Shown here piece by piece: positions 900 to 61,609 of a stretch of 64,000 nt of DNA. A model generated the notes under the pieces. The model was not told the origin of the DNA. It did not search any database and saw only the letters and a program-made list of their open reading frames with translations. Source of the stretch: Mobula hypostoma (lineage: Eukaryota); assembly GCF_963921235.1 (NCBI RefSeq), contig NC_086097.1, positions 128,218,001 through 128,282,000 of the forward strand. The letters run 5' to 3'. The number at the start of each line of letters is the position of its first letter. The stretch's first letter is position 1. Made by a program: the position numbers and the translations under genes.

Positions 900-1892
900 A
901 ATCAGAAACAGATTCACCTTTATTATCCCTGGCATACCGTATGTCGTGAAATTTGCTGGTTTACAGCAGCAGTACAGTTTAATACATAAAAATTTACCAA
1001 AAGTTACAATAAGAAATGCATTAAAAGAAAATTGTGCAAAATGAGAAGAAGTAGTGAGGTGGAGTTCACAAACCCTTCAAAATTCTAATGACAGAAGGGA
1101 AGAAGCTGTTCTGAAAACATTGAGTGTGCACTCTTGGGCTCCTGTACCTCCTTCCTGATGGGAATAATGAGAAGAAAGCATGTTCTGAATGATGAGGGTC
1201 CTTCAAGATGGATGCCACCTCCTTAAGGCACTGTCTTTAGAAGACGTTCTCAGTAGTGGAAAGGCTGGTACCTATGATGGAGCTGGTTGATTCCACAACC
1301 CCCTGCAGCTTTTTCTTGTCCCATGCATTGGAGCCTCCATACCGGACGGTGATGCAACCAATCAGAATGCTTCATAGATCTCCGTACGTCTGTAGAAATT
1401 TGCTGGAGATATCAGCATCAGTATTTTGGGCCCAGGATAGATGCTTTGAGATGTCGACACCCAGGAACTTGAAGCTGCTCACCTCTTGTGCTGTTGACCC
1501 CCTCGGGCTTGTTCACTCACAATCCCAATGCAATCTGACAGAGCATGAGGATCTTTTGTAAAGAAGAATAAGAATGGGGAAAATTGCAGTGTCCAGATGT
1601 GCAAAGCTGATGGAGACCTATCCACACAGACTCGAGGCTGTAGTTACTGCCAAAGGTGCATCTACTAAATACTGACTTGAAAGGGGTGAGAAATTATCCA
1701 ATCAATTTTATATATTATTGTAATTAGTGAGGATTGGTGTGTACTCTCCTGACTTCCCCATCCTGAAGCCCAAGATCAATTCCTTGGTCTTTATGACAAA
1801 GAGTACAAGGTTGTTGTGACGCCTCTCAATCAGCTGATCTATCTCACTCCTGTACACCTCCTTATCACCATCAGAGATTCTGCCAACCATAG
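900..1892 (-). mobile_element. Rex1/Babar LINE relic, interrupted by a Tc1 fragment and by the CR1 at 1893; short continuation at 3966-4040
   Basis: [19 protein letters not shown]...NNLVL..KTKELI..FR peptide (ORF 1708-1890); 3' tail near 900. Confidence 0.75.
1505..1715 (+). mobile_element. Tc1/mariner transposase 3' relic
   Basis: Degenerate translation ..NLTE..KEE..WGKIAVSRCAKLMETYPHRLEAVVTAKGASTKY* (stop at 1673-1675) matches the Tc1 C-terminus. Confidence 0.75.
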
Positions 1893-3965
1893 AAGGAAGG
1901 ATTCAAAGGGGGGAAAGTGGCCACAGTGGTTGACAAAGGAAGTCAGAGATAGCAAAGCATTAAAAAGGAAGTATAACAGAGCTAAGGTGAGTGGGAAGAC
2001 GGATGACTGGGAAATTTTTAAGGGACAACAGAACTTAACTAAAAAGGCAATACGGGGAGAAAAAATGAGGTATGAATGCAAGCTAGCTAGGAATATAAAG
2101 GAGGATAGCAAAAGTTTTTTTAGGTATGTGAAGAGAAGGAAGATAGTTAAGAACAATGTTGGGCCCTTGAAGAATGAATTAGAAGAAATTGTTATGGGAA
2201 ACAGAGAAATGGCAGATGAATTTAATAAGTACTTTGGATCTGTCTTCACTAGGGAAGACACAAGCAATCTCCCAGATGTATGTATGGGCCAAGGACATAG
2301 GGTAACAGAGGAACTGAAACAGATTGACATTAGGAAGGAAACGGTGATGAGTAGACTGATGGGACTGAAGGCTAACAAATCCCCAGGTCCAGATGGTCTG
2401 CATCCTAGGGTACTAAAGGAGGTGGCTCTGGAAATTGCGGATGCATTGGTGATCATTTTCCAATGTTCCTTAGATTCAGGATCAGTTCCTGAGGATTGGC
2501 GAATGGCTAATGCTATCCCACTTTTTAAGAAAGGAGGGAGGGAGAAAACAGAGAACTATCGCCCTGTTAGCCTAACATCAGTAGTGGGGAAGATGCTAGA
2601 GTCCATTATTAAAGATGAAATAGCGGCATATCTTGATAGCAGTGATAGGATTGGGCCGAGCCAGCATGGATTTACCAAGGGCAAATCATGCTTGACTAAT
2701 CTATTGGAATTTTTCAAGGATGTAACCAGGAAGATAGACATGGGAGATCCCGTAGATGTGGTGTACATTGACTTTCAGAAGGCATTCGATAAGGTACCAC
2801 ATGGGAGATTGGTGGGTAAAATCAGAGCTCATGGCATTGGGGGGAGGATATTGATATGGATAGAAAACTGGTTGGCAGATAGAAAGCAAAGGGTAACAGT
2901 GAATGGGTGTTTCTCGGAATGGCAGGTGGTGACTAGTGGGGTGCCACAGGGCTCGGTATTGGGACAACAGCTGTTTACGATTTACGTCAATGATTTAGAG
3001 GAAGGCATTGTGAATAACATCAGCAAGTTTGCTGATGATACTAAGCTGGGTGGCAGTGTGACATGTGATGAGGATGTTAGGAGAATTCAAGGTGACTTGG
3101 AAAGGCTGGGTGAGTGGGCAGAAACTTGGCAGATGGCGTTTAATGTGAATAAGTGTGAGGTTATTCACTTTGGGAGCAAGAACAGGAAGGCAGATTATTA
3201 TCTGAACGGTGTGGCGTTAGGTAAGGGAGAAATGCAAAGAGATCTAGGAGTACTTGTTCATCAGTCTGTGAAGGTGAATGAGCAAGTGCAGCAGGCTGTG
3301 AAGAAGGCTAATGGAATGTTGGCCTTTATTACGAAGGGAATTGAGTACAAGAGCAAGGAAATCCTTTTGCATTTGTACAGGGCCCTGGTGAGACCACACC
3401 TGGAGTATTGTGTGCAGTTTTGGTCTCCAGGGTTAAGGAAGGACATCCTGGCTGTGGAGGAGGTGCAGCGTAGGTTCACTAGGTTAATTCCTGGGATGTC
3501 CGGACTGTCTTACGCAGAGAGGTTAGAGAGACTGGGCTTGTACACGCTGGAATTAAGGAGATTGAGGGGGGATCTGATTGAGACATATAAGATTATTAAG
3601 GGATTGGACAAGATAGAGGCAGGAAATATATTCCAGATGCTGGGAGAGTCCAGTACCAGAGGGCATGGTTTAAGAATAAGGGGTAGGTCATTTAGGACAG
3701 AGTTGAGGAGGAACTTCTTCTCCCAGAGAGTTGTGGAGGTGTGGAACGTGCTGCCTCAGAAGGCAGTGGAGGCCAATTCTCTGGATGCTTTCAAGAAGGA
3801 GCTGGATAGGTATCTTATGGATAGGGGAATCAAGGGTTATGAGGACAAGGCAGGAACTGGGTATTGATAGTAGATGATCAGCCATGATCTCAGAATGATG
3901 GTGCAGTCTCGAAGGGCCGAATGGTCTACTTCTGCACTTATTGTCTATTGTCTATTGTCTATTGT
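1893..3965 (+). mobile_element. CR1-clade LINE, 5'-truncated, young copy
   Basis: RT ORF, 3' UTR, (CTATTGT)n tail; CATAG repeated at 1888-1892 and 3966-3970 (TSD); flanks rejoin as Rex1 sequence. Confidence 0.95.
1894..3867 (+). CDS. CR1 ORF2 reverse transcriptase, 5'-truncated (no endonuclease domain, no native start codon)
   Basis: Uninterrupted frame with KSPGPDGLHP, NYRPVSLTS, QHGF, DFQKAFDKVPH, GVPQGSVLG, KFADDTK and LVRPHLEYCVQFWSP motifs. Confidence 0.85.
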   Translation, partial: RKDSKGGKWPQWLTKEVRDSKALKRKYNRAKVSGKTDDWEIFKGQQNLTKKAIRGEKMRYECKLARNIKEDSKSFFRYVKRRKIVKNNVGPLKNELEEIVMGNREMADEFNKYFGSVFTREDTSNLPDVCMGQGHRVTEELKQIDIRKETVMSRLMGLKANKSPGPDGLHPRVLKEVALEIADALVIIFQCSLDSGSVPEDWRMANAIPLFKKGGREKTENYRPVSLTSVVGKMLESIIKDEIAAYLDSSDRIGPSQHGFTKGKSCLTNLLEFFKDVTRKIDMGDPVDVVYIDFQKAFDKVPHGRLVGKIRAHGIGGRILIWIENWLADRKQRVTVNGCFSEWQVVTSGVPQGSVLGQQLFTIYVNDLEEGIVNNISKFADDTKLGGSVTCDEDVRRIQGDLERLGEWAETWQMAFNVNKCEVIHFGSKNRKADYYLNGVALGKGEMQRDLGVLVHQSVKVNEQVQQAVKKANGMLAFITKGIEYKSKEILLHLYRALVRPHLEYCVQFWSPGLRKDILAVEEVQRRFTRLIPGMSGLSYAERLERLGLYTLELRRLRGDLIETYKIIKGLDKIEAGNIFQMLGESSTRGHGLRIRGRSFRTELRRNFFSQRVVEVWNVLPQKAVEANSLDAFKKELDRYLMDRGIKGYEDKAGTGY

Positions 3966-5822: not shown

Positions 5823-6041
5823 CAACATACATCAAAGTTGCTGGTGAACGCAGCAGGCCAGGCAGCATCTCTACGAAGAGGTACAGTCGACGTTTCAGGC
5901 CGAGAGAGTAGTCCTGACGAAGGGTCTCGGCCTGAAACGTCGACTGTACCTCTTCGTAGAGATGCTGCCTGGCCTGCTGCGTTCACCAACAACTTTGATG
6001 TGTGTTGCTTGAATTTCCAGCATCTGCAAAATTCCTGTTGT
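5823..6041 (+). mobile_element. Penelope-like element terminal fragment in inverted-repeat (hairpin) configuration
   Basis: 83-bp arms at 5823-5905 and 5925-6007 with 2 mismatches and a 19-nt spacer; GATGCTGCCTGGCCTGCTG...CCAGCATCTGCA end motif; ATGCAACAAT on both flanks (5809-5818, 6042-6051). Confidence 0.8.
5910..5945 (+). ncRNA. Minimal type I hammerhead ribozyme motif (Penelope-type)
   Basis: AGTC-CTGACGA-AGGGTCTCGGCCT-GAAA-CG-TC|GACT: conserved CUGANGA and GAAA core, AGTC/GACT stem I, GUC cleavage triplet, palindromic ACGU stem III. Confidence 0.75.
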
Positions 6042-6051
6042 ATGCAACAAT

Positions 6052-7668
6052 ATCAGAATCAGGTTTATTATTACCGGCATATGTCATGAAATTTGTTAAC
6101 TTAACAGCAGCAATTCAATGCAATAAATGATATAGAAGAAAAAAAAACATAAATAAGTAAATCAATTATAGTATACATACTTGAATAGATTAAAAATTGT
6201 GCAAATACAGAAATAATATATATTTTTAAAAGTGAGGTAGTTTTCAAGGGCTCAATGCCCATTTAAGAATCGGATGGCAGAGGGGAAGAAGTTGTTCCTG
6301 AGTCGCTGAGTGTGTGCCTTCAGGCTTCTATACCTCCTATCTGATGGTAACAGTGAGAAAAGAGCACACTCTGGGTTCTGGGGGTCCTTAATAATGGATA
6401 CTCCCTTTCTGAGACACCGCTCCTTGAAGATGTCCTGAGTATTTTGTAGGCTAGTACCCAAGATGGAGCTGACTAAATTTACAATCCTCTGCAGTTTCTT
6501 TCAGTCCTGTGCAGTAGCCCCCCCATACCAGATGCAGCCTGTCAGAAAGCTCTCCACAGTACATCTGCAGAAGTTTTTGAGCGTATTTGTTGACATACAA
6601 AATCTCTTCAAACTCCTAATATAGTATAGTCACTGTCTTGCCTTCTTTATAACTGCATCGATATGTTGGGACCAGGTTAGATCCTCAGAGATCTTGACAT
6701 CCAGGAACTTGAAACTGCTCACTCTCTCCACTTCTGATCCCTCTATAAGGATTGGCATGTGTTCCTTTGTCTTACCCTTCCTGAAGTCCACAATCAGCTC
6801 TTTCGTCTTACTGATGTTGAGTGTCAGGTTGTTGCTGCTACACTACTCCACTAGTTGGCATATCTCGCTCCTGTACGCTCTCTCATCACCATCTGAAATT
6901 CTACCAACAATGGTTGTATCACCAGCAAATTTATAGATGGTATTTGAGCTATGCCTAACCACACAGTCATGGGTATAGAGAGAGTAAAGCAGTGGGCTAA
7001 GCACACACCCTTGAGGTGCACCAGTGTTGATCGTCAGTGAGGAGGAGATGTTATCACCAATCCACACAGATTGTGGGCTTCCAGTTAGGAAATCGAGAAT
7101 TCAATTGCAGAAGGAGGTACAGGGGCCCAGCTTCTGTAACTTCTCAGTCAGGATTGTGGGAACGATGGTATTAAATGTTGAACTATAGCCGATGAACAGC
7201 ATCCTGATGTAGGTATTTCTGTTTTCCAGGAAATCTCAAGCCGTGTGGAGATTGTGTCTGCCATTGACCTATTTTGGCAATAGGCAAATAGATAATGGGT
7301 CCAGGTTCTTGCTGAGGCAGGAGTTCAGTCTAGTCATGACCAACCTCTCAAAGCATTTCATCACTGCAGATGTGAGTGCTACTGGGTGATAGTCATTAAT
7401 GCAGCTCACATTATTCTTCTTAAGCACTAGTATAATTGTTGCCTTTTTGAAGCAAGTGGGAACTTCCACCCATAACAAGGAGAGATTGAAAATGTTCTTG
7501 AATACTTCTGGTTGGCACGTGTTTTCAGAGCCTTACCAGATACTCCATCGGGACCTCCGGCCTTGCGAGGGCTCACCCTCTTTAAAGACAGCCTAACCTC
7601 AGCCTCTGACACAGAGATCACAGGGTTATCAGGTGCAGCAGGGATCTTCACAGCTGTAGTTATATTCT
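6052..7668 (-). mobile_element. Rex1/Babar LINE, 5'-truncated, frameshifted RT
   Basis: [71 protein letters not shown] peptides; (GATTCT)n-type tail at the 6052 end. Confidence 0.9.
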
Positions 7669-22853: not shown

Positions 22854-22973
22854 CTTACTCACTCTTCCTTCAGTTAGTCCTGACGAAGGGTCTCGGCCTG
22901 AAACGTCGACTGCGCCTCTTCCTAGAGATGCTGCCTGGCCTGCTGCGTTCACCAGCGACTTTGATGTGTGTTG
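22854..22973 (+). mobile_element. 120-bp Penelope-derived insertion containing a hammerhead ribozyme motif
   Basis: Perfect 12-bp TSD CTGGTATCATCC (22842-22853, 22974-22985); nearly identical to 5910-6007. Confidence 0.85.
22876..22911 (+). ncRNA. Minimal type I hammerhead ribozyme motif (Penelope-type)
   Basis: AGTCCTGACGAAGGGTCTCGGCCTGAAACGTCGACT, identical to 5910-5945. Confidence 0.75.
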
Positions 22974-23048
22974 CTGGTATCATCCGCTGTCTTGTGCCTG
23001 TGCTCTTCCTGATGAATTCGGCAAAAGGCTTGAACTATATTATATAGT

Positions 23049-30545: not shown

Positions 30546-30787
30546 CGAAGCTCATGCTCGCATACTGGAATCTTCCCGATTGAGGGGTGTTGTTGTTGAT
30601 TAAATAACACCATTTAACACCGAGGTGTTTAGGTTATTCCTCTCACTGAGGGTGGTGAATCCCTGGAATTCTCTACCGCTGGTGGCCAAATCAGTGGAGG
30701 AGATTAAGGACAGAGAACAGAAACAGTTTTGAAAGATTTGGGAATTGAAGACTATGTGGAACAGGCACAGAATGGGAGAAGATGCCT

Positions 30788-32200
30788 ACCAGTGCCTAAG
30801 AAGTATAATATGGGCTGCCTTAATGACTATCGCCCAGTGCACTCACATCGACAGTGACGAAATGCTTTGAGAGGTTGGTCATGACTAGACTGATTTCCTG
30901 CCTCAGCAAGGACCTGGACCCATTGCAATGTGCCTGTTGTCACAATAGGTCATGGCAGACGCAATCTCCACACGGCTTGAGACCACCTGGACAACACAAA
31001 CACAAACACCTACATCAGGATGCTGTTCATCGACTATAGCTCAGCATTTAATACCATCATTCCCACAATCCTGATTGGGAAGTTGCAGAACCTAGGCCTC
31101 TGTACCTCTCTCTGCAATTGGATCCTCGGCTTCCCAACCAGAAGACCACAGTCTGTGCGGATTGGTGCTAACATATCCTTGCTGACGATCAACACTGATG
31201 CACCTCAGGGACGTGTGCTTAGCCCACTGCTCTAATCTCTGTATACACATGACTGTGTGACTAGGCATAGCTCAAATACCATCTATAAATTTGCTGATGA
31301 TACAACCATTGTTGGCAGAATCTCAGGTGGTGACAAGATGGCGTACAGGAGTGAGGTATGCCAACTAATGGAGTGGTGCTGTAGCAACAACCTGGCACTC
31401 AACGTCAGTAAGAGGAAAGAGCTGATTGTGGATTTCAGGAAGGGTAAGACGAAGGAGCACATACCAATCCTCATAGGAGGATCAGAAGTGGAGACAGTGA
31501 GCAGTTTCAAGTTCCTGGGTGTCAAGATCTCTGACCATCTAACCTGATCCCAACGTAATTGATCTAGCTATAAAGAAGGCAAGACAGTGGCTATACTTCA
31601 TTAGGAGTTTGAAGAGATTTGACTTGTCAACAAATACACTCAAAAACTTCTATAGATGTACCGTGGAGAGCTTTTCGATAGGCTGCATCACTGTCTGGTA
31701 TGGAGAGGCTACTGCACAGGACCGAAAGAAACTGCAGAAGGTTGTAAATCTAGTCAGCTCCATCTTGGGTACTAGCCTACAAAGTACCCAGGACATCTTT
31801 AGGGAGCGGTGTCTCAGAAAGGTAGCATCCATTATTAAGGACCTCCAGCACCCAGGGTATGCCTTTTTCTCACTATTACCATCAGGTAGGAGGTACAGAA
31901 GCCTGAAGGCACACACTCAGCGATTCAGGAACAGCTTCTTCCCCTCCGCCATCTGATTCCGAAATGGACATTAAACCTTTGGACACTACCTCACTTTTTT
32001 TTTAATATACAGTATTACTGTTTTTTGCACTTTTTAAAATCTATTCACTATACATATACTGTAATTGATTTGCTTATTTATTTATTATTGTTATTTTTTT
32101 CTCTTCTATATTATGTATTGCATTGAACTGTTGCTGCTAAGTTAACAAATTTCACGTCACATGCCAGTGATAATAATCCTGATTCCGATGCTGGTTCTGA
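30788..32200 (+). mobile_element. Rex1/Babar LINE, 5'-truncated, same subfamily as 6052-7668
   Basis: [52 protein letters not shown] peptides; stops and frameshifts; GATTC-type tail. Confidence 0.9.
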
Positions 32201-50310: not shown

Positions 50311-50861
50311 CAGGCTGTCCGGTAGCAACCAGGTTCTGACTTTACAAGTGTCTACAAGTTAGGTACAGAGGAGATGTCAGGGGTAAGTTTTTTACACAGA
50401 GAGTGGTGAATGATTGGAATGGGCTGCTGGTGGCAGTGGTGGAGGTGGAAACGATAGGATCTTTTAAAGAACTCCTGGATGGCTACATGGAGCTTAGAAA
50501 AATAGAGAGCTATGGGTAAAGCCTAGGTAGTTCTAAGATAGGGACATGTTCGGCACAGCTTTGTGGGCTGAAGGACCTGTATTGTGCTGTAGTTTTTCTA
50601 TGTTTCTAAGTTGATTTTGTTCTTAAGTCAAAAAATACATAACATCACTCAACACTGGAACTGCATCTCTGCAATATTGTATTCAATGGCATCAAAAGCA
50701 CATAATTGGTAAGAAAGAGTAGTTACCAAAAGTGGAGAGCGTGGAAAGTAGATCTGAATGTACGTACATACATTTCACAATTGAATTTAATTTATATTAT
50801 GGGAGATTGTTCATATGTACAGCTGTCCATAGGTCAGGTGTATGTAACCCAGGGATAACCT
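50311..50861. mobile_element. Tigger/pogo-like MITE relic (last bases displaced to 53621-53626), containing a CR1 3' fragment at ~50360-50608
   Basis: TA|CAGGCTGTCC left end; right end GTATGTAACCCAGGGATAACCT(G)|TA completed after the CR1 insertion. Confidence 0.55.
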
Positions 50862-53619
50862 CCTGAATATTCAATATTCAGGAGGGAGAGACATGAAGGA
50901 AGGGGAGGTGGGGTGGTGTTGCTGGTTAAAGAAGAGATTAACGCAATAGAAAGGAAGGACATAAGCCGGGAAGATGTGGAATCGATATGGGTAGAGCTGC
51001 GTAACACCAAGGGGCAGAAGACGCTGGTGGGAGTTGTGTACAGGCCACCTAACAGTAGTAGTGAGGTCGGAGATGGTATTAAACAGGAAATTAGAAATGT
51101 GTGCAATAAAGGAACAGCAGTTATAATGGGTGACTTCAATCTACATGTAGACTGGGTGAACCAGATTGGTAAAGGTGCTGAGGAAGAGGATTTCTTGGAA
51201 TGTATGCGGGATGGTTTTTTGAACCAACATGTTGAGGAACCAACTAGAGAGCAGGCTATTCTGGACTGGGTTTTGAGCAATGAGGAAGGGTTAATTAGCG
51301 ATCTTGTCGTGAGAGGCCCCTTGGGTAAGAGTGACCATAACATGGTGGAATTCTTCATTAAGATGGAGAGTGACATAGTTAATTCAGAAACAAAGGTTCT
51401 GAGCTTAAAGAGGGGTAACTTTGAAGGTATGAGACGTGAATTAGCTAAGATAGACTGGCAAATGATACTTAAAGGATTGACGGTGGATATGCAATGGCAA
51501 GCATTTAAAGATCGCATGGATGAACTACAACAATTGTTCATCCCAGTTTGGCAAAAGAATAAATCAAGGAAGGTAGTGCACCCGTGGCTGACAAGAGAAA
51601 TTAGGGATAGTATCAATTCCAAAGAAGAAGCATACAAATTAGCCAGAGAAAGTGGCTCACCTGAGGACTGGGAGAAATTCAGAGTTCAGCAGAGGAGGAC
51701 AAAGGGCTTAATTAGGAAGGGGAAAAAAGATTATGAAAGAAAACTGGCAGGGAACATAAAAACGGACTGTAAAAGCTTTTATAGATATGTAAAAAGGAAA
51801 AGACTGGTAAAGACAAATGTAGGTCCCCTACAGACAGAAACAGGTGAATTGATTATGGGGAGCAAGGACATGGCAGACCAATTGAATAATTACTTTGGTT
51901 CTGTTTTCACTAAGGAGGACATAAATAATCTTCCAGAAATAGTAAGGGACAGAGGGTCCAGTGAGATGGAGGAACTGAGCGAAATACATGTTAGTAGGGA
52001 AGTGGTGTTAGGTAAATTGAAGGGATTGAAGGCAGATAAATCCCCAGGGCCAGATGGTCTGCATCCTAGAGTGCTTAAGGAAGTAGCCCAAGAAATAGTG
52101 GATGCATTAGTGATAATTTTTCAAAACTTTAGATTCTGGACTAGTTCCTGAGGATTGGAGGGTGGCTAATGTAACCCCACTTTTTAAAAAAGGAGGGAGA
52201 GAGAAACTGGGGAATTATAGACTGGTTAGCCTAACGTCGGTGGTGGGGAAACTGCTGGAGTCAGTTATCAAGGATGTGATAACAGCACATTTGGAAAGCG
52301 GTGAAATTTTCGGACAAAGTCAGCATGGATTTGTGAAAGGAAAATCATGTCTGACGAATCTCATAGAATTTTTTGAGGATGTAACTAGTAGAGTGGATAG
52401 GGGAGAACCAGTGGATGTGGTATATTTGGATTTTCAAAAGGCTTTTGACAAGGTCCCACACAGGAGATTAGTGTGCAAACTTAAAGCACACAGTATTGCG
52501 GGTAAGGTATTGGTGTGGGTGGAGAATTGGTTAGCAGACAGGAAGCAAAGAGTGGGAATAAACGGGACCTTTTCAGAACGGCAGGCGGTGACTAGTGGGG
52601 TACCGCAAGGCTCAGTGCTGGGACCCCAGTTGTTTACAATATATATTAATGACTTGGATGAGGGAATTAAATGCAGCATCTCCAAGTTTGCGGATGACAC
52701 GAAGCTGGGCAGCAGTGTTAGCAGTGAGGAGGATGCTAAGAGGATGCAGGGTGACTTGGATAGGTTGGGTGAGTGGGCAAATTCATGGCAGATGCAATTT
52801 AATGTGGATAAATGTGAAGTTATCCACTTTGGTGGCAAAAATAGGAAAACAGATTATTATCTGAATGGTGGCCGATTAGGAAAAGGGGAGGTGCAACAAG
52901 ACCTGGGTGTCATTATACACCAGTCATTGAAAGTGGGCATGCAGGTACAGCAGGCGGTGAAAAAGGTGAATGGTATGCTGGCATTTATAGCGAAAGGATT
53001 CGAGTACAGGAGCAGGGAGGTACTACTGCAGTTGTACAAGGCCTTGGTGAGACCACACCTGGAGTACTGTGTGCAGTTTTGGTCCCCTAATCTGAGGAAA
53101 GACATCTTTGCCATAGAGGGAGTACAAAGAAGGTTCACCAGATTGATTCCTGGGATGGCAGGACTTTCATATGAAGAAAGACTGGATGAACTGGGCTTGT
53201 ACTCGTTGGAATTTAGAAGATTGAGGGGGGATCTGATTGAATCCCAAGATCCTAAAGGGATTGGACAGGCTAGATGCAGGAAGATTGTTCCCGATGTTGG
53301 GGAAGTCCAGAACGAGGGGTCATAGTTTGAGGATAGAGGGGAAGCCTTTTAGGACCGAGATTAGGAAAAACTTCTTCACACAGAGAGTGGTGAATCTGTG
53401 GAATTCTCTGCCACAGGAAACTGTTGAGGTCAGTTCATTGGCTATATGTAAGAGGGAGTTAGATATGGCCCTTGTGGCTACGGGGGTCAGGGGGTATGGA
53501 GGGAAGGCTGGGACGGGGTTCTGAGTTGGATGATCAGCCATGATCATAATAAATGGCGGTGCAGGCTCGAAGGGCTGAATGGCCTACTCCTGCACCTATT
53601 TTCTATGTTTCTATGTTTC
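50862..53619 (+). mobile_element. CR1-clade LINE, 5'-truncated within the endonuclease domain
   Basis: APE endonuclease motifs (GVVYRPPN, MGDFN, ILDWV, SDHN), full RT, 3' UTR, (TTCTATGT)n tail, TAACCT TSD (50856-50861, 53620-53625). Confidence 0.95.
50873..53524 (+). pseudogene. CR1 ORF2 (partial endonuclease + RT) with two frameshifts
   Basis: Three consecutive ORFs 50913-52151, 52162-53325, 53237-53524; frame breaks near 52128 and 53240; KFADDTK intact. Confidence 0.9.
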
Positions 53620-55005: not shown

Positions 55006-56925
55006 CTGTTTTTATTCAAGGCTGTTCTCTTCTTATTTTACTATGTGAATCTGATATTATGATCAGTTCTTGTCCCAGTTAAACAGTATCCCTATTTGAA
55101 AATGTATTAACATTTCTTTATTTTTGCTGGATTAAATCCAAGGAATTCTGGATGCAGTAACATTGACTTCAACATCTCATGCTCAGCATGAAAAGTGACG
55201 GAGAAATAATTTTTAGCCCTTTTCTCGGTTACATAGACTTGTTGACAGCCCCTCACAAACTTTTTCATTATAATTGTCTTGTGGGAAGATGAATACATTA
55301 CTGGATTTTCCCAGCCATTCTGCAAAGCTTTTGGTAGTTCAGTACATCTTGGAGCCGTGCCTTGCCAGTGCATTGCATGGGAACTTGATCAGAAGCTGTA
55401 CGTAAAATATCCCGTCAACATATTCGATTCCATTTTGCTGTTATGAGTTTTAATTTTAGTTCACCCAGATGCAATAGTCCTAATGATATGAAACAAAGCT
55501 TTGTTTTGGACGTATTTGCAGTAATTATAGTTGGATGTGGTGTAACGGTGGAGACATAAAATACTGCAGATGCTGGAATTCAGAGCAATAAGCAAGATGT
55601 GAAGGAAGTCTGTGGATGAGGCAGCATTTGTAAAGGAAGTGGTCCAGATGATCAGTAACTGGTAATTGTTTTGTGCATTGAGTTTGCATACAGATCATGC
55701 CATATGTAAGAACATTGTGGTAGGACAAAAGGGATTAAAAGTATCAGTAAGGAATAAATATAGTGTTACAGATGCAGAGAAGGTACAGTGCAGGAAGTGA
55801 AATAAGGTGCAAGGACCATCAGGATTCCTTATCATGCAAGAGGTCCATTCAAGAATCTTATGTCCATGGAATACAAGCTGTCCTGGTAGTGCAAGTTCCC
55901 AATCTCTTGTAACTTCCTTTCAGTGAGAGGGAGGAGGAGAGACAATGACTGATGCTGGAAGGGTCTTTGATTATGCTGGCCGTTTTCCAGAGGCAGCAGG
56001 AAGGAAGGGTCTCGACCCAAAATGTCAACTGTGGTGTATCTCTCCTCTGCTCACTCGGATCCAAGTGTGATCTGACTGATATCCACAAGAATGCATGACT
56101 GTGAAAGAGCACTGTGTCCTGGCCTGACCAGATACTTGATAGCATCATTGGTAATCCGCCAATTCTGATGCAGGGTCACCAGCTTAAACATTAATCCTGT
56201 TCCCCAGACCCTTCATTTTCTGCTCCCATTTTAGAACTCCTACATTGTCTGCAGTTTGTTTTTGTTTGACCTTTAAACGGGTCCTCAGTTCTGTAAGTGA
56301 TATGGGAATTTTGAGAGTGAACTGCACTGAGAGTCGGTGCCAGCATAGGAACTGGTGTGGGTTTCTTATTTGTTTGTTACAAGCTGAAATGTTGCTTATT
56401 TCTGAGAGGTGAGTCCAGTATTAACCCTCCCACTTTTCAGAGGTGATATGAATTCCTCACCACAGAAAGGTAAGGGTCTGTGGGCACACTGGTACCAGAA
56501 TAACTCTAAATATTGTGGCCTCTCATATTTGTGAAAATCAATAGAAATAACTGAAGATGCTGAAAGTCTAGAAAAAAATTGAAAATGGTGGAAATGCTCA
56601 TCAGGTCAGGCAACATCTGTGGGAAGAAAAGCAGAATCAATGTTGCAGGTCAGAGATCCTTCAACGGAACTTAGGAGAGAAAAGAATCTGGTAAAGCAGC
56701 AGCGAGAGTGGAGGGGTGGGTGTCTCTGATAGAACAAATCATGGGGTAACCATGGGGACTGAGTGCTCGTGAGCAGTTAGTGAGGGAGAATATTGACAAA
56801 AGAATGTAGGAGCTGCAAAATACAGAGCAGGAGGACATGTCTGGCAAGTCAGCCCGGCTGTGTCCTCCATTTCCAAAGGCAAAAAAAGAAAAAAATGAAA
56901 ACTGAGCTAACATCACAGATACAGA

Positions 56926-58750
56926 CCAAGAACTTTTACAGGTATAGTAAGAGCAAAAAGATTGTAGGGGATAAAACTGGTCCTCTTGAAGATCAGAGTG
57001 GTCGGCTATGTGCGGAACCAAAAGAAATGGGGGAGATCTTAAACGGGTTTTTTACATCTGTATTTACTAAGGAAACTGGCATGAAGTCTATGGAATTAAG
57101 GGAAACAAGTAGTGAGATCATGGAAGCTGTACAGATTGAAAAGGAGGAGGTGCTTGCTATCTTGAGGCAAATTAAAGTGGATAAATCCCCAGGACCTGAC
57201 AGGGTGTTCCCTCGGACTTTGAAGGAGACTAGTGTTGAAATTGCAGGGGTCCTGGCAGATATATTTAAAATGTCGGTGTCTACGGGTGAGGTGCCGGAGG
57301 ATTGGAGAGTGGCTCATATTGTTCCGTTGTTTAAAAAAGAATCGAAAAGTCATCCGGGAAATTATAGGCCCGTAAGTTTAACGTCAGTAGTAGGTAAGTT
57401 ATTGGAGGGAGTACTAAGAGACAGAACCTACAAGCATTTGGATAGACAGGGACTTATTAGGGAGAGTCAACATGGCTTTGTGTGTGGTAGGTCATGTTTG
57501 ACCAATCTATTGCAGTTTTTCGAGGAGGTTACTAGGAAGGTGGATGAAGGAAAGGCAGTGTATGTTGTCTACATGGGCTTCAGTAAGGCCTTTGACAAGG
57601 TCCCGCATGGGAGGTTAGTTAGGAAAATTCAGTCACTAAGTATACATGGAGCGGTGGTAAATTGGATTAGACATTGGCTCAATGGAAGAAGCCAAAGAGT
57701 GGTAGTAGAGAATTGCTTCTCAGAGTGGAAGCCTGTGACTAGTGGTGTGCCACAGGGATCAGTGCTGGGTCCGTTGTTATTTGTCAACTATATCAATGAT
57801 CTGGATGATAATGTGGTAAATTGGATCAGCAAATTTGCTGATAATACAAAGACTGGAGGTGTAGTGGACAGTGAGGAAGGTTTTCAGAGCCTGCAGAGGG
57901 ACTTGGACCAGCTGGAAAAATGGGCTGAAAAATGGCAGATGGAGTTTAATACAGACAAGTGCGAGGTATTGCACTTTGGAAGGACAAACCAAGGTAGAAC
58001 ATATAGGGTAAATGGTAAGGCACTGAGGAGTGCAGAAGAACAGAGGGATCTGGGAATACAGATACAAAATTCCCTAAAAGTGGCATCACAGGTAGATAGG
58101 GTCGTAAAGAGAGCTTTTGGTACATTGGCCTTTATTAATCAAAGTATTGAGTATAAGAGCTGGAATGTTATGATGAGGTTGTATAAGGTATTGGTGAGGC
58201 TGAATCTGGAGTATTGTGTTCAGTTCTGGTCACCAAATTACAGGAAGGATATTAATAAGGTTGAAAGAGTGCAGAGAAGGTTTACAAGGATGTTGCCGGG
58301 ACTTGAGAAACTGAGTTACAGAGAAAGATTGAATAGGTTAGGACTTTATTCCCTGGAGCGTAGAAGAATGAGGGGAGATTTGATAGAGATATATAAAATT
58401 ATGATGGGTATAGATAGAGTGAATGCAAGTAGGCTTTTTCCACTGAGGCAAGGGGAGAAAAAAACCAGAGGACATGGGTTAAGGGTGAGGAGGGAAAAGT
58501 TTAAAGGGAACATGAGGGGGGGCTTCTTCACACAGAGAGTGGTGTGAGTGTGGAATGAGCTGCCAGGCGAGGTGGTAAATGCGGGTTCTTTTTTAATATT
58601 TAAGAATAAATTGGACAGATACATGGATGGGAGGTGTATGGAGGGATATGGTCCGTGTGCAGGTCAGTGGGACTAGGCAGAAAATGGTTCGGCACAGCCA
58701 AGAAGGGCCAAAAGGCCTGTTTCTGTGCTGTAGTTTTTCTATGGTTTTCT
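56926..58750 (+). mobile_element. CR1-clade LINE (third subfamily), 5'-truncated, inserted in a Penelope relic (~56548-59125)
   Basis: Open RT frame to a premature TGA at 58545-58547, after which the frame continues to a later TAG; catalytic motifs mutated (YMGFSKAFD, KFADNTK); TTTTCTATG tail. Confidence 0.92.
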
Positions 58751-59128: not shown

Positions 59129-59190
59129 GTGTGTGTGTGTGTGTGTATGTATGTGTATATATATATATTATACACACATACACACATACA
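59129..59190. repeat. Compound (GT)n/(TA)n/(CA)n microsatellite flanking the Tc1 element
   Basis: Directly visible dinucleotide runs. Confidence 0.9.
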
Positions 59191-59418
59191 CAGTTGAAGT
59201 CAGAAGTTTACATACACCTTAGCCAAATACATTTAAACTCAGTTTTTCACAATTCCTGACATTTAATCCTGGAAAACATTCCCTGTCTTAGGTCAGTTAG
59301 GATCACTACTTTATTTTAACAATGTGAAATGTCAGAATAATAGTAGAGAGAATGATTTATTTCATCTTTTATTTCTTTCTTCACATTCCCAGTGGGTCAG
59401 AAGTTTACATACACTTTG

Positions 59419-60648
59419 TTAGTATTTGGTAGCATTGCCTCTAAGTTGTTTAACTTGGATCAAACGTTTTGGGTAGCTTTCCACAAGCTTCTCACAGTAA
59501 GTTGCTGGAATTTTGTTCCATTCCTCCAGACAGAACTGATGTAATTGAGTTAGGTTTGTAGGCCTCCTTGCTCGCACACGCTTTTTCAGTTCTGCCCACA
59601 AATTTTCTATCAGATTGAGGTCAGGGCTTTGTGATGGCCACTCCAATACCTTGACTTTGTTGTCCTTAAGCAATTTTGCCACAACTTTGGAGGTATGCTT
59701 GGGGTCATTGTCCATTTGGAAGACCCATTTGCCACCGAGCTTTAACTTCCTGGCTGATGTCTTGAGATGTTGCTTCAATATATCCACATAATTTTCCTTC
59801 CTCATGATGCCATTTATTTTGTGAAGTGCACCAGTCCCTCTTGCAGCAAAGCACCCCCACAACATGATGCTATCACCCCCATGCTTCACGGTTGGGATGG
59901 TGTTCATCAGCTTGCAAGCCTCACCCTTTTTCCACCAAACATAACGATGGTCATTATGGCCAAACAGTTCAATTTTTGTTTCATCAGACCAGAGGATATT
60001 TCTCCAAAAAGTAACATCTGTGTCCCTATGTGCATTTGCAAACTGTAGTCTGGCTTTTTTATGGCGGTTTTGGAGCAGTGGCTTCTTCCTTGCTGAGCAG
60101 CCTTTCAGGTTATGTCGATATAGGACTCGTTTTACTGTGGATATGGATACTTGTCTACCTGTTTCCTCCAGCATCTTCACAAGGTCCTTTGCTGTTGTTC
60201 TGGGATTGATTTGTACTTTTCGTGCCAAAGTACGTTCATCTATAGGAGACAGAATGTGTCTCCTTCCTGAGCGGTATTATACTTTATACTTTATCATCAC
60301 CAAACAATTGAAACTAGAATGTACAATCATCACAGTGATATTTGATTCTGCACTTTCTGCTCCCTGGATTACAAATATTCAATAATAAAATATTAAAAAT
60401 AGTAAAAATTTGTAAATATTAAAAATTTAAATTATAAATCATAAATAGAAAATTGAAAAATGGAAAGTAAGGTAATGCAGGAAAAAATTATGGCTGCGTG
60501 GTCCCATGGTGTTTATACTTGCATACTATTGTTTGTACAGATGAACATGGTACCTTCAGGCGTTTGGAAATTGCTCCCAAGGATGAACCAGACTTGTGGA
60601 GGTCCACAATTTTTGTTTCTGAGGTCTTGGCTGATTTCTTTTGATTTT
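59419..60648 (-). pseudogene. Tc1 (SB-like) transposase: start codon deleted, one frameshift, one insertion; catalytic domain frame open
   Basis: KSKEISQDLR/IVDLHKSGSSLGAISKRLKVP...HHGTTQP | insert | YRSGRRHILSPIDERTLARKVQINPRTTAK...WSDETK...QMDNDPKH...SPDLNLIENLW...GNATKY*. Confidence 0.92.
60281..60487 (-). mobile_element. AT-rich LINE 3' tail (Rex1-like) inserted into the transposase gene
   Basis: (TAAAGTA)-repeat tail; TTAT on both sides (60277-60280, 60488-60491); transposase codons rejoin across it. Confidence 0.65.
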
Positions 60649-61609
60649 GTTTGTACATTTCTGACCCACTGGAATTGTGATATAGTCAATTAAAAGTGAA
60701 ATAATCTGTTTGTAAACAATTGTTGGAAAAATTCCTCGTGTCATGCACAAGGTAGATGTCCTCAACATCTGGCCAAAACTATAGTTTGCTAATATGAAAT
60801 CTGTGGAATGGTTAAATAATGAGTTTTAATGACGTCAACCTCAGTGTATGTAAACTTCTGACGTCAACTGTGTGTATATATACAAAGGTGTATCTATATC
60901 ATGAGGGAATACAATTCTCTGGCTCTCATGTGATTGCCAGAATTTTCGTCCAAGTGTTACAAATGTCTTCAGTGAATACCATTTGTAGCTATTCAACTGC
61001 AAAGGCATTAAAGTGAGTAGAGTGGCTTCCCTTATTTGATATCCTCCAGAGTGGGAGTAGTTAGACATATACCCAGCAAGCAGTATCCACACTAACAGTA
61101 ATAACCACTGCTATATAAAGGACTGAAATCATCATACTTGGTGTATGCGTGGGATAGGGGGTGAGGAGTCAACTTTAAGAGCAATCTTTAGTGCATGAAC
61201 TGGGTCCAGACTGCCATAACCTGATAATAAACTCCCCAGGAGGAAATTTATTAGAGATGAAGAATAGGGGGTCTAAATACCTACCTTCCTGAGAAGTGTT
61301 CTCATGGCAGTGTATCTCACATGAAAACAGACCCACACAAATACTCATTGGCACTCAAACACAAACAGATATGAAGATAAGCCAACGTGCGTGTATATAT
61401 ACACACACACACACACACACATGCAAAAATACATGAAAACAAAAATCTTTTTAGCTGCCGAACACCTGTTTGGCCACAGACATGCTTTTAAACCAGGATA
61501 TACACACCCATGTGCACCACTAAGACATAAATGAAATCAAGATCTCTGTTTTTTCACAAATAGCTATCCAAAGACCACCCCTTCTCTTTCCGCGCTTTTT
61601 CTTTTTCTC

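Follow-up and report, generated by a model that had tools for sequence, protein, structure and literature searches.

How did a ray come to carry a transposon of the Sleeping Beauty (SB) clade, and in what form does the family exist there? The question is raised by a 64,000-nucleotide stretch of the Mobula hypostoma genome (NC_086097.1, positions 128,218,001 to 128,282,000; hereafter the window), in which an initial annotation, made from the letters alone, had noticed an SB-like Tc1 element and suggested that it had arrived by horizontal transfer.

Anatomy of the Window Copy

The sequence at 59191-60870 is a dead SB-clade Tc1 element. Its termini read CAGTTGA.. at 59191 and ..TCAACTG at 60870, and its transposase lies on the minus strand. 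The following features were delineated in the window:

59191..60870, minus strand: complete Tc1 element of the SB clade, type A, non-autonomous, with left and right ends but deleted for 5'UTR and ATG; 1680 bp, of which 214 bp are a nested insert
59191..59418, minus strand: right IR/DR, with outer DR core at 59199-59217 and inner DR core at 59396-59414
59419..60277, minus strand: transposase codons 56-340, open, with KKPLL linker and D153, D244 and E279 (DD34E)
60278..60491, minus strand: nested 3' tail of a host LINE, 214 bp, with terminal (TAAAGTA)n
60492..60648, minus strand: transposase codons ~3-55 (PAI region, HTH_SB), start codon missing
60640..60655, minus strand: type A junction, inner left DR joined directly to ~codon 3 of the transposase
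60648..60870, minus strand: left IR/DR, with outer DR core at 60844-60862 and inner DR core at 60647-60665, the latter degenerate and truncated by the deletion that defines type A
near 60705-60717, minus strand: half-DR-like 13-bp motif in the left IR, with one change in the window copy
59129..59190, no strand: TG/TA/CA microsatellite at the insertion site

The initial annotation had described an SB-subfamily Tc1 element with IR/DR ends and DD34E motifs, and both ends, all four DR cores (the inner left one degenerate and cut) and the motifs WSDE (59980-59991), DND (59704-59712) and IENLW (59596-59610) were indeed located. The catalytic frame, given there as 269 open codons, is open but longer, with 285 codons from stop to stop on the minus strand (59419-60276). 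The triad D153/D244/E279, with its spacing of 34, is present both in the window copy and in the majority sequence of the ray family. The frame matches the catalytic domain of SB100X (PDB 5CR4) with an E value of 2e-129, and the copy matches the SB RED domain with 7e-26. Pfam recognizes HTH_Tnp_Tc3_2 and DDE_3, HTH_SB in the piece beyond the LINE insert, and PAX as well; the bipartite paired-like HTH DNA-binding domain is present and interrupted by the LINE tail.

Other features had escaped the initial annotation. Compared with the full-length copies L081 and L083 (see below), the window copy has lost its ATG together with about 160 bp of 5'UTR; an autonomous element would have both, and an unbroken frame of 340 codons. 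Its TA target duplications now read CA and TG, within the microsatellite. The left IR is its least conserved part: the distance to the intact reference element L086 (see below) is 13% in the left IR, 4.8% in the right IR, and 5.3% in the ORF. The earlier estimate of about 30 substitutions in 269 amino acids relative to the SB transposase agrees with 30 differences from L086 over the last 269 codons.

The 214-bp insert, proposed in the initial annotation to be a nested host LINE tail, yielded 1806 first-look candidates in the ray genome, of which 40 were scored, with 89-92% identity, plus the insert itself. The copies examined (n=7) have common upstream sequence, and one upstream frame, an ORF end, matches PF09004. 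These two observations identify the insert at 60278-60491 as the 3' tail of a LINE, which we take to be of the Rex1/Babar type.

Elsewhere, the window holds long LINE frames with reverse transcriptase and endonuclease domains (1753-3864, 50859-53322, and 56784-58750), presumably of the CR1 type; a MITE-like 185-bp near-palindrome (91%) at 5823-6007, with a partial copy of 101 bp (95%) at 22875-22975; and a pair of 1.4-kb repeats in opposite orientation, 85% identical, at 6052-7432 and 30787-32189. At 1580-1672, the 31 C-terminal residues of the SB transposase are weakly matched (52%, E 5e-4), possibly by a remnant of another Tc1 family.

Structural Forms of the Ray Family

The ray family comprises about 1,000 copies, nearly all of them start-less: about 180 of type A, about 780 of type B, and 2 full-length but broken. 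Type A copies, such as that in the window, retain the left and right ends and have lost ~160 bp (5'UTR and ATG). In type B, a 434-bp duplicate of the 3' end, in inverted orientation, stands in place of the left end, resulting in two right ends; the inverted arm is followed by ~16 bases of 5'UTR and by the ORF from ~codon 20, with the joins located at 3-4-base microhomologies and a total length of ~1,637 bp, near that of the parent. The half-DR-like 13-bp motif is found in the left IR only, conserved per position in 36-40 of 40 left-ended copies and missing from type B; it may correspond to the published half-DR (HDR) enhancer. The full-length parent form of ~1,640 bp, with left IR, 5'UTR, ATG, and right IR, existed in the ray. 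The copies that bear on it are:

L081:1126-2744: full-length parent-type copy, broken (stops or frameshifts)
L083:256-1896: full-length parent-type copy, broken (stops or frameshifts)
L084:1113-1560 (G000:C1:18443162-18446214): variant with two right ends and a ~350-bp inverted arm

A short duplicated end motif lies immediately outside the left end of L081. In L084, the inverted arm is shorter and the 5'UTR remnant longer than in type B, and the jump from UTR to ORF is identical, which suggests that left-end replacement occurred twice, or stepwise.

These proportions were approached through several searches. Exact junction matches numbered 371 for type B and 79 for type A genome-wide, and correction of these counts for divergence gave the figures of ~780 and ~180. 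Independent end markers returned 844 matches for the right IR versus 82 for the left IR. The 30 best loci divided into 6 of type A, 22 of type B, and 2 unclassified. In a search with the left end, all 30 loci, including the window copy, join the inner left DR directly to ~codon 3; the start region had one exact match in the ray genome, and the three candidates obtained with the 5'UTR were L081, L083, and the variant L084.

Both derivative types have moved as units, as indicated by the TA dinucleotides that flank them. Among 20 junction-picked copies of each type, a 5' TA was found in 19/20 of type B, with TA/TA in all 12 traceable at both ends, and in type A at 17/17 traced 5' ends and 8/9 traced 3' ends. 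At the family level, TA precedes 55 of 66 end matches.

A consensus and a search for intact copies had been proposed in the initial annotation. The majority sequence of 71 distinct copies is stop-free; no intact copy was found among the 119 protein matches scored of 58,801 candidates: none begins at residue 1-2, and 17 are stop-free. Five of 63 copies, all of type B, are free of stops and deletions from codon 21 to codon 340, a number explicable by chance together with the way the copies were sampled. A new start created by type B was considered and rejected: its 350-aa open frame gains ~28 antisense-derived codons and has no in-frame ATG before codon 90. A separate curiosity is the NCBI model "endoribonuclease LACTB2 isoform X2" of M. 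hypostoma (P0058), which consists mostly of SB transposase sequence and is likely an annotation artefact or an exonised copy; it groups with the ray copies and, since it may come from the same species, was not counted as a second host.

Divergence from the Salmon-Type Element and Mode of Inheritance

The host was placed by RAG1, which gave a single match in the 3.48-Gb ray genome. Among the 120 of 228 matches listed, the RAG1 core was 97% identical to that of a Hemitrygon akajei cluster; identities of 84-87% were obtained with other sharks and rays, 81% with chimaera, and 68-70% with teleosts. By these identities the host is a myliobatiform ray, in line with the cartilaginous-fish host suspected from the window.

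For comparison, a metagenome scan (3 loci from 130 pattern hits) provided L086, an intact 1,639-bp SB-type element on a metagenome contig. Its protein is 99% identical to a cluster with Oncorhynchus and Hucho members, and public runs carry identical alleles, both pointing to a bony-fish (salmon-type) origin. The flank of the element (L086:1-1110) resembles another Tc1-type element.

The majority of the 71 ray copies differs from L086 at 68/1630 nucleotides (4.2%; ~96% identity). By region, the differences amount to 18/230 in the left IR (7.8%), 27/1023 in the ORF, 8/228 in the right IR (3.5%), and 15/149 in the 5'UTR, the last derived from only 2-3 decayed copies. Coding divergence is low, with dS 0.043, dN 0.022, and 16/340 amino acid differences; these 16 fixed differences are clustered at residues 303-317. 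CDS identity is 97.4%, above the >80% criterion for the SB clade (Jia et al. 2022), and identity to the pT2 vector transposase is 94.4%. There are 27 coding sites at which most ray copies differ from L086, the weakest being supported by 43/66 copies. On these figures, ray and salmon type differ less in their transposase than two rays do in RAG1.

The initial annotation had called for a comparison of element dS with that of host genes; here, the host side was a literature-based minimum rather than host-gene dS. Whale shark and zebra shark differ by dS 0.061-0.111 over ~50 My (PMC13100897, cited in part), and a divergence of 381 My per branch was used (PMC10787021, likewise in part). The lowest shark rate over 2 x 381 My leads to an expected dS of at least ~0.46 under vertical descent. 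The observed 0.043 is at least tenfold lower, so that vertical descent fails and horizontal transfer of the family into the ray, as the initial annotation had surmised, is very likely on the strength of the sequence comparison.

Vertical inheritance from a gnathostome ancestor would require unusual conservation of the element, for which one could invoke slow elasmobranch evolution and a between-lineage dN/dS of 0.52, a sign of some constraint. Synonymous sites and the non-coding right IR, however, are just as close between ray and salmon type as the protein; the copies have 1.7 stops each and have themselves drifted by 3-4.6% since the burst, and RAG1, a gene under selection, is only 68-70% identical to teleosts among the matches listed. 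We consider such inheritance very improbable. Even less credible is contamination of the ray assembly with teleost DNA. The best public holders of the element are high-copy, salmon-type runs, as contamination would have it, but hundreds of the ~1,000 dispersed ray copies are spread over many chromosome-scale contigs, most ray copies carry their own alleles at the 27 coding sites, the nested ray LINE tail and the ray LINE flanks are uncovered by the eight public runs examined, and structures A and B are ray-only. Contamination had been deemed unlikely from the window as well, and horizontal transfer is retained as the preferred reading.

Age and Mode of Amplification

The copies lie 3.1-3.7% from their majority in a score-ranked set. 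In the junction-picked set, the distance is 3.9% for type B (20/20 copies) and 4.6% for type A (18/20 measurable), or 3.1% and 3.5% without CpG sites; the difference between 4.6% and 3.9% has p = 0.025, with the value for type A partly inflated by B-type majority sites. Copies differ from one another about twice as much as from the majority, and no more than three non-CpG columns divide them; together these observations indicate one star-like burst. At the borrowed shark rate, the burst is perhaps ~30-75 My old, and the per-generation rate of 7e-10 given for the epaulette shark (PMC10587355, cited in part) would make it much older.

Within the genome, dN/dS is 0.80 and falls to 0.64 when CpG codons are excluded; the copies carry 1.7 stops each, the sample being enriched for well-preserved frames. 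Evolution within the genome is relaxed, with dN/dS below 1.

Relatives and Probable Donor Lineage

In a quick tree of 30 protein rows, the ray rows (the window copy, two type B copies, and P0058) form a clade with support 99, within a larger clade (support 100) to which the SB vector protein also belongs. The tree shows a three-way fork between the ray clade, a salmonid/SB-vector clade (96), and a Sparus/Prochilodus/Coilia clade (99). At the 16 residues that distinguish the ray from the salmon type, salmonid-type proteins have 0-2 ray-state residues, and the Sparus/Prochilodus/Coilia clade has 4-7; this suggests that the ray form did not descend from the salmonid element but is its sister. With their separate 99 clade and the 0-2/16 of the salmonid-type proteins, the ray rows fall outside the salmonid Tss1 subfamily.

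Closer relatives were sought in the supplement of Jia et al., where single decayed copies were scored by eye at the 7 sites that separate the ray from L086 within the first 400 coding bases. In the supplement entries covered, the ray state was found at 7 sites in SB-Hetnil, 6 in SB-Panhyp, 3 each in SB-Angros and SB-Megatl (the eel and tarpon entries), 2 each in SB-Berspl and SB-Thuori, and 0 in SB-Salsal; for three of these seven sites, CpG decay is a possible origin. At codons 96-97, where the ray state involves two transversions, the corresponding 11-mer occurs three times (once in Hetnil, twice in Panhyp) versus 35 instances of the other state over approximately the first 400 letters of the supplement entries. 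From the six-letter labels, Hetnil is likely Heterotis niloticus, a bonytongue (Osteoglossiformes), and Panhyp Pangasianodon hypophthalmus, a pangasiid catfish. These entries, not the salmonid one, are likely the nearest relatives seen of the ray family, which refines the comparison with salmonid-type copies made in the initial annotation. A protein search of 50% clusters returned no closer named relative, the plasmid collection contained no SB match, and none of 62 hits in a pattern search of genome contigs was a relative.

Public sequencing runs with 39-48% of the words of L083 numbered 24, under 9 organism labels and from 14 studies. Eight runs, representing 8 of the 9 labels, have deep cover of the element and none over the ray flanks or the nested LINE. 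In four runs, all 40 of the sites listed (39 more rows lie beyond the listing) carry the L086 allele, and 20 of those sites differ from the ray majority. The examined salmon-type runs also retain the 5'UTR. The eight runs come from salmon-type hosts and are uninformative on spread among sharks and rays; by the alleles compared, the ray family is different from the common public holders of the element.

The direction of transfer could also have been from ray to teleost, or an unsampled third host or vector, such as a parasite, could have passed the element to both. At 6-7 of the 16 residues that separate it from the salmon type, the ray form has retained the Sparus/Prochilodus state, and so was not derived from the salmonid element; moreover, its nearest listed kin are probably freshwater fishes on different continents. 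Set against such a route are the diversity of the SB clade in 107 ray-finned species (PMC9777934, in the text available) and the single star-like burst of the ray family, which suits a recipient. We regard these alternative routes as possible but unlikely. The reading we favor, and hold with high confidence, is that the window contains a dead, start-less SB-clade copy in a ray whose family came by transfer, likely from the bonytongue/pangasiid-catfish sub-lineage and not from salmonids.

A Model for the Rise of Two-Right-End Copies

Based on these structures, a simple model would have the invading full-length element provide transposase in trans. Types A and B would arise when gap repair switches template at short microhomologies, a mechanism named for mariner deletions (PMC5490172, in part), and these derivatives would then out-multiply the parent in one burst ~30-75 My ago. 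The family would subsequently decay, its death brought about by loss of transposase sources, and the LINE tail would insert into the window copy afterwards.

The model has to accommodate what is known of SB ends. In the portions of the SB literature covered (PMC7827188, PMC5224488, PMC8151067, PMC4505599), all four DRs are required, the left end is bound first, its half-DR acts as an enhancer that is not essential, and strongly deleted substrates move poorly. In laboratory SB systems the left end is preferred, and duplicating it raises activity 2-3 fold (PMC8151067, PMC7827188, PMC5224488, same portions). Type B obeys the length rule and keeps four DRs, yet it duplicates the non-preferred end and is ~4 times commoner than type A. 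This excess could reflect a changed end preference of the ray enzyme, a lower host cost, or an early founder effect. In a salmon consensus study, the genomic success of IR variants did not track activity in cell assays (PMC6362248, cited in part).

The closest engineered counterpart is pT3, a symmetric SB vector with a duplicated left TIR. Both pT3 and type B have two copies of one end; however, pT3 duplicates the left end with its half-DR enhancer, whereas type B duplicates the right end, without the half-DR-like motif.

Type B may also have shut the family down, in that read-through transcripts would form a ~430-bp hairpin including ~200 bases of transposase coding sequence. By analogy, such a hairpin would act like maize Mu killer, reportedly a single silencing locus in which the 5' end of the element is duplicated and whose transcripts form a long hairpin. 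The arms of type B were identical at origin, with no majority differences between them, and one type B copy folds 416 of its first 439 nt onto the 3' end, compared to 107 in a full-length copy; a single arm alone has no special fold (z 0.06). On the other hand, type B reached ~780 copies, so silencing was not prompt, and types A and B are of similar age (4.6% versus 3.9%). The parallel with Mu killer likewise extends to two copies of one end but not to which end or how many loci, with the 5' end at a single locus there and the 3' end in ~780 copies here. This silencing role appears rather improbable, and loss of transposase sources is preferred as the cause of death.

Taken together, these considerations allow a bolder proposal, which we put forward tentatively and think less likely to be right than wrong: that a natural SB sub-lineage of African bonytongue, Asian catfish, and ray crossed into cartilaginous fishes and reversed its end preference there, such that an enhancer-less, parent-length form with two right ends came out roughly fourfold ahead of the left-right form, its hairpin perhaps silencing the family. 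If end preference was reversed, the ray family would constitute a natural test of the IR/DR rules and a source of a transposase variant with different end specificity.

Comparison with Known Systems

Tc1 transfer between teleosts and lamprey is reportedly on record. More generally, Tc1/mariner is the commonest transferred group in vertebrates, with purifying selection during transfer and relaxed evolution within genomes, and ray-finned fishes are involved in 93.7% of transfer events; cartilaginous fishes are unnamed in the part of the text covered (Zhang et al. 2020, PMC7070016). Measured against that part, the ray family represents the same kind of event with a cartilaginous host instead. An expansion of TcMar in skates and rays has been described, with transfer not named in the text available (bioRxiv 10.1101/2024.05.27.594570). 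A literature search, with Repbase, Dfam, and subscription journals outside its scope, retrieved no description of SB transfer into rays. That Tc1 elements pass between fishes is well established; what is new here is the host group and a structural variant of a known family.

In the covered part of the survey by Jia et al. 2022 (PMC9777934), SB hosts comprise 107 ray-finned fishes and one mollusc, with none among Chondrichthyes; only a ZB-like element is given, for one chondrichthyan. The ray family extends the known host range of the SB clade to cartilaginous fishes, absent from that survey list, and suggests that the donor lineage was not salmonid. For the SB group only, the same pages report TIRs that reach 415 bp and an ORF overlapped by the 3' TIR (PMC9777934), and such long-TIR entries in teleosts may be unrecognised two-right-end forms akin to type B.

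The closest known systems are Sleeping Beauty (SB100X, PDB 5CR4/5UNK; pT2/Gene-Trap transposase AFR53956.1) and salmonid Tss1 (L086-type). They share with the ray family the same 340-aa DD34E transposase, ~230-bp IR/DR ends with four DRs, a 5'UTR, TA targets, and a length of ~1,640 bp, at 94-95% amino acid and 96% nucleotide identity at the family level. A ray-type transposase with its 16 natural substitutions and a two-right-end donor are directly assayable in standard SB cell systems. Unlike Sleeping Beauty and Tss1, the ray family has a cartilaginous host, its copies almost all lack the 5'UTR and the ATG, and the majority carry a right end on both sides. Here, derivatives of nearly full length but devoid of a promoter have taken over an IR/DR family, in contrast to the published view that deleted copies are not favored and that the left end is preferred.
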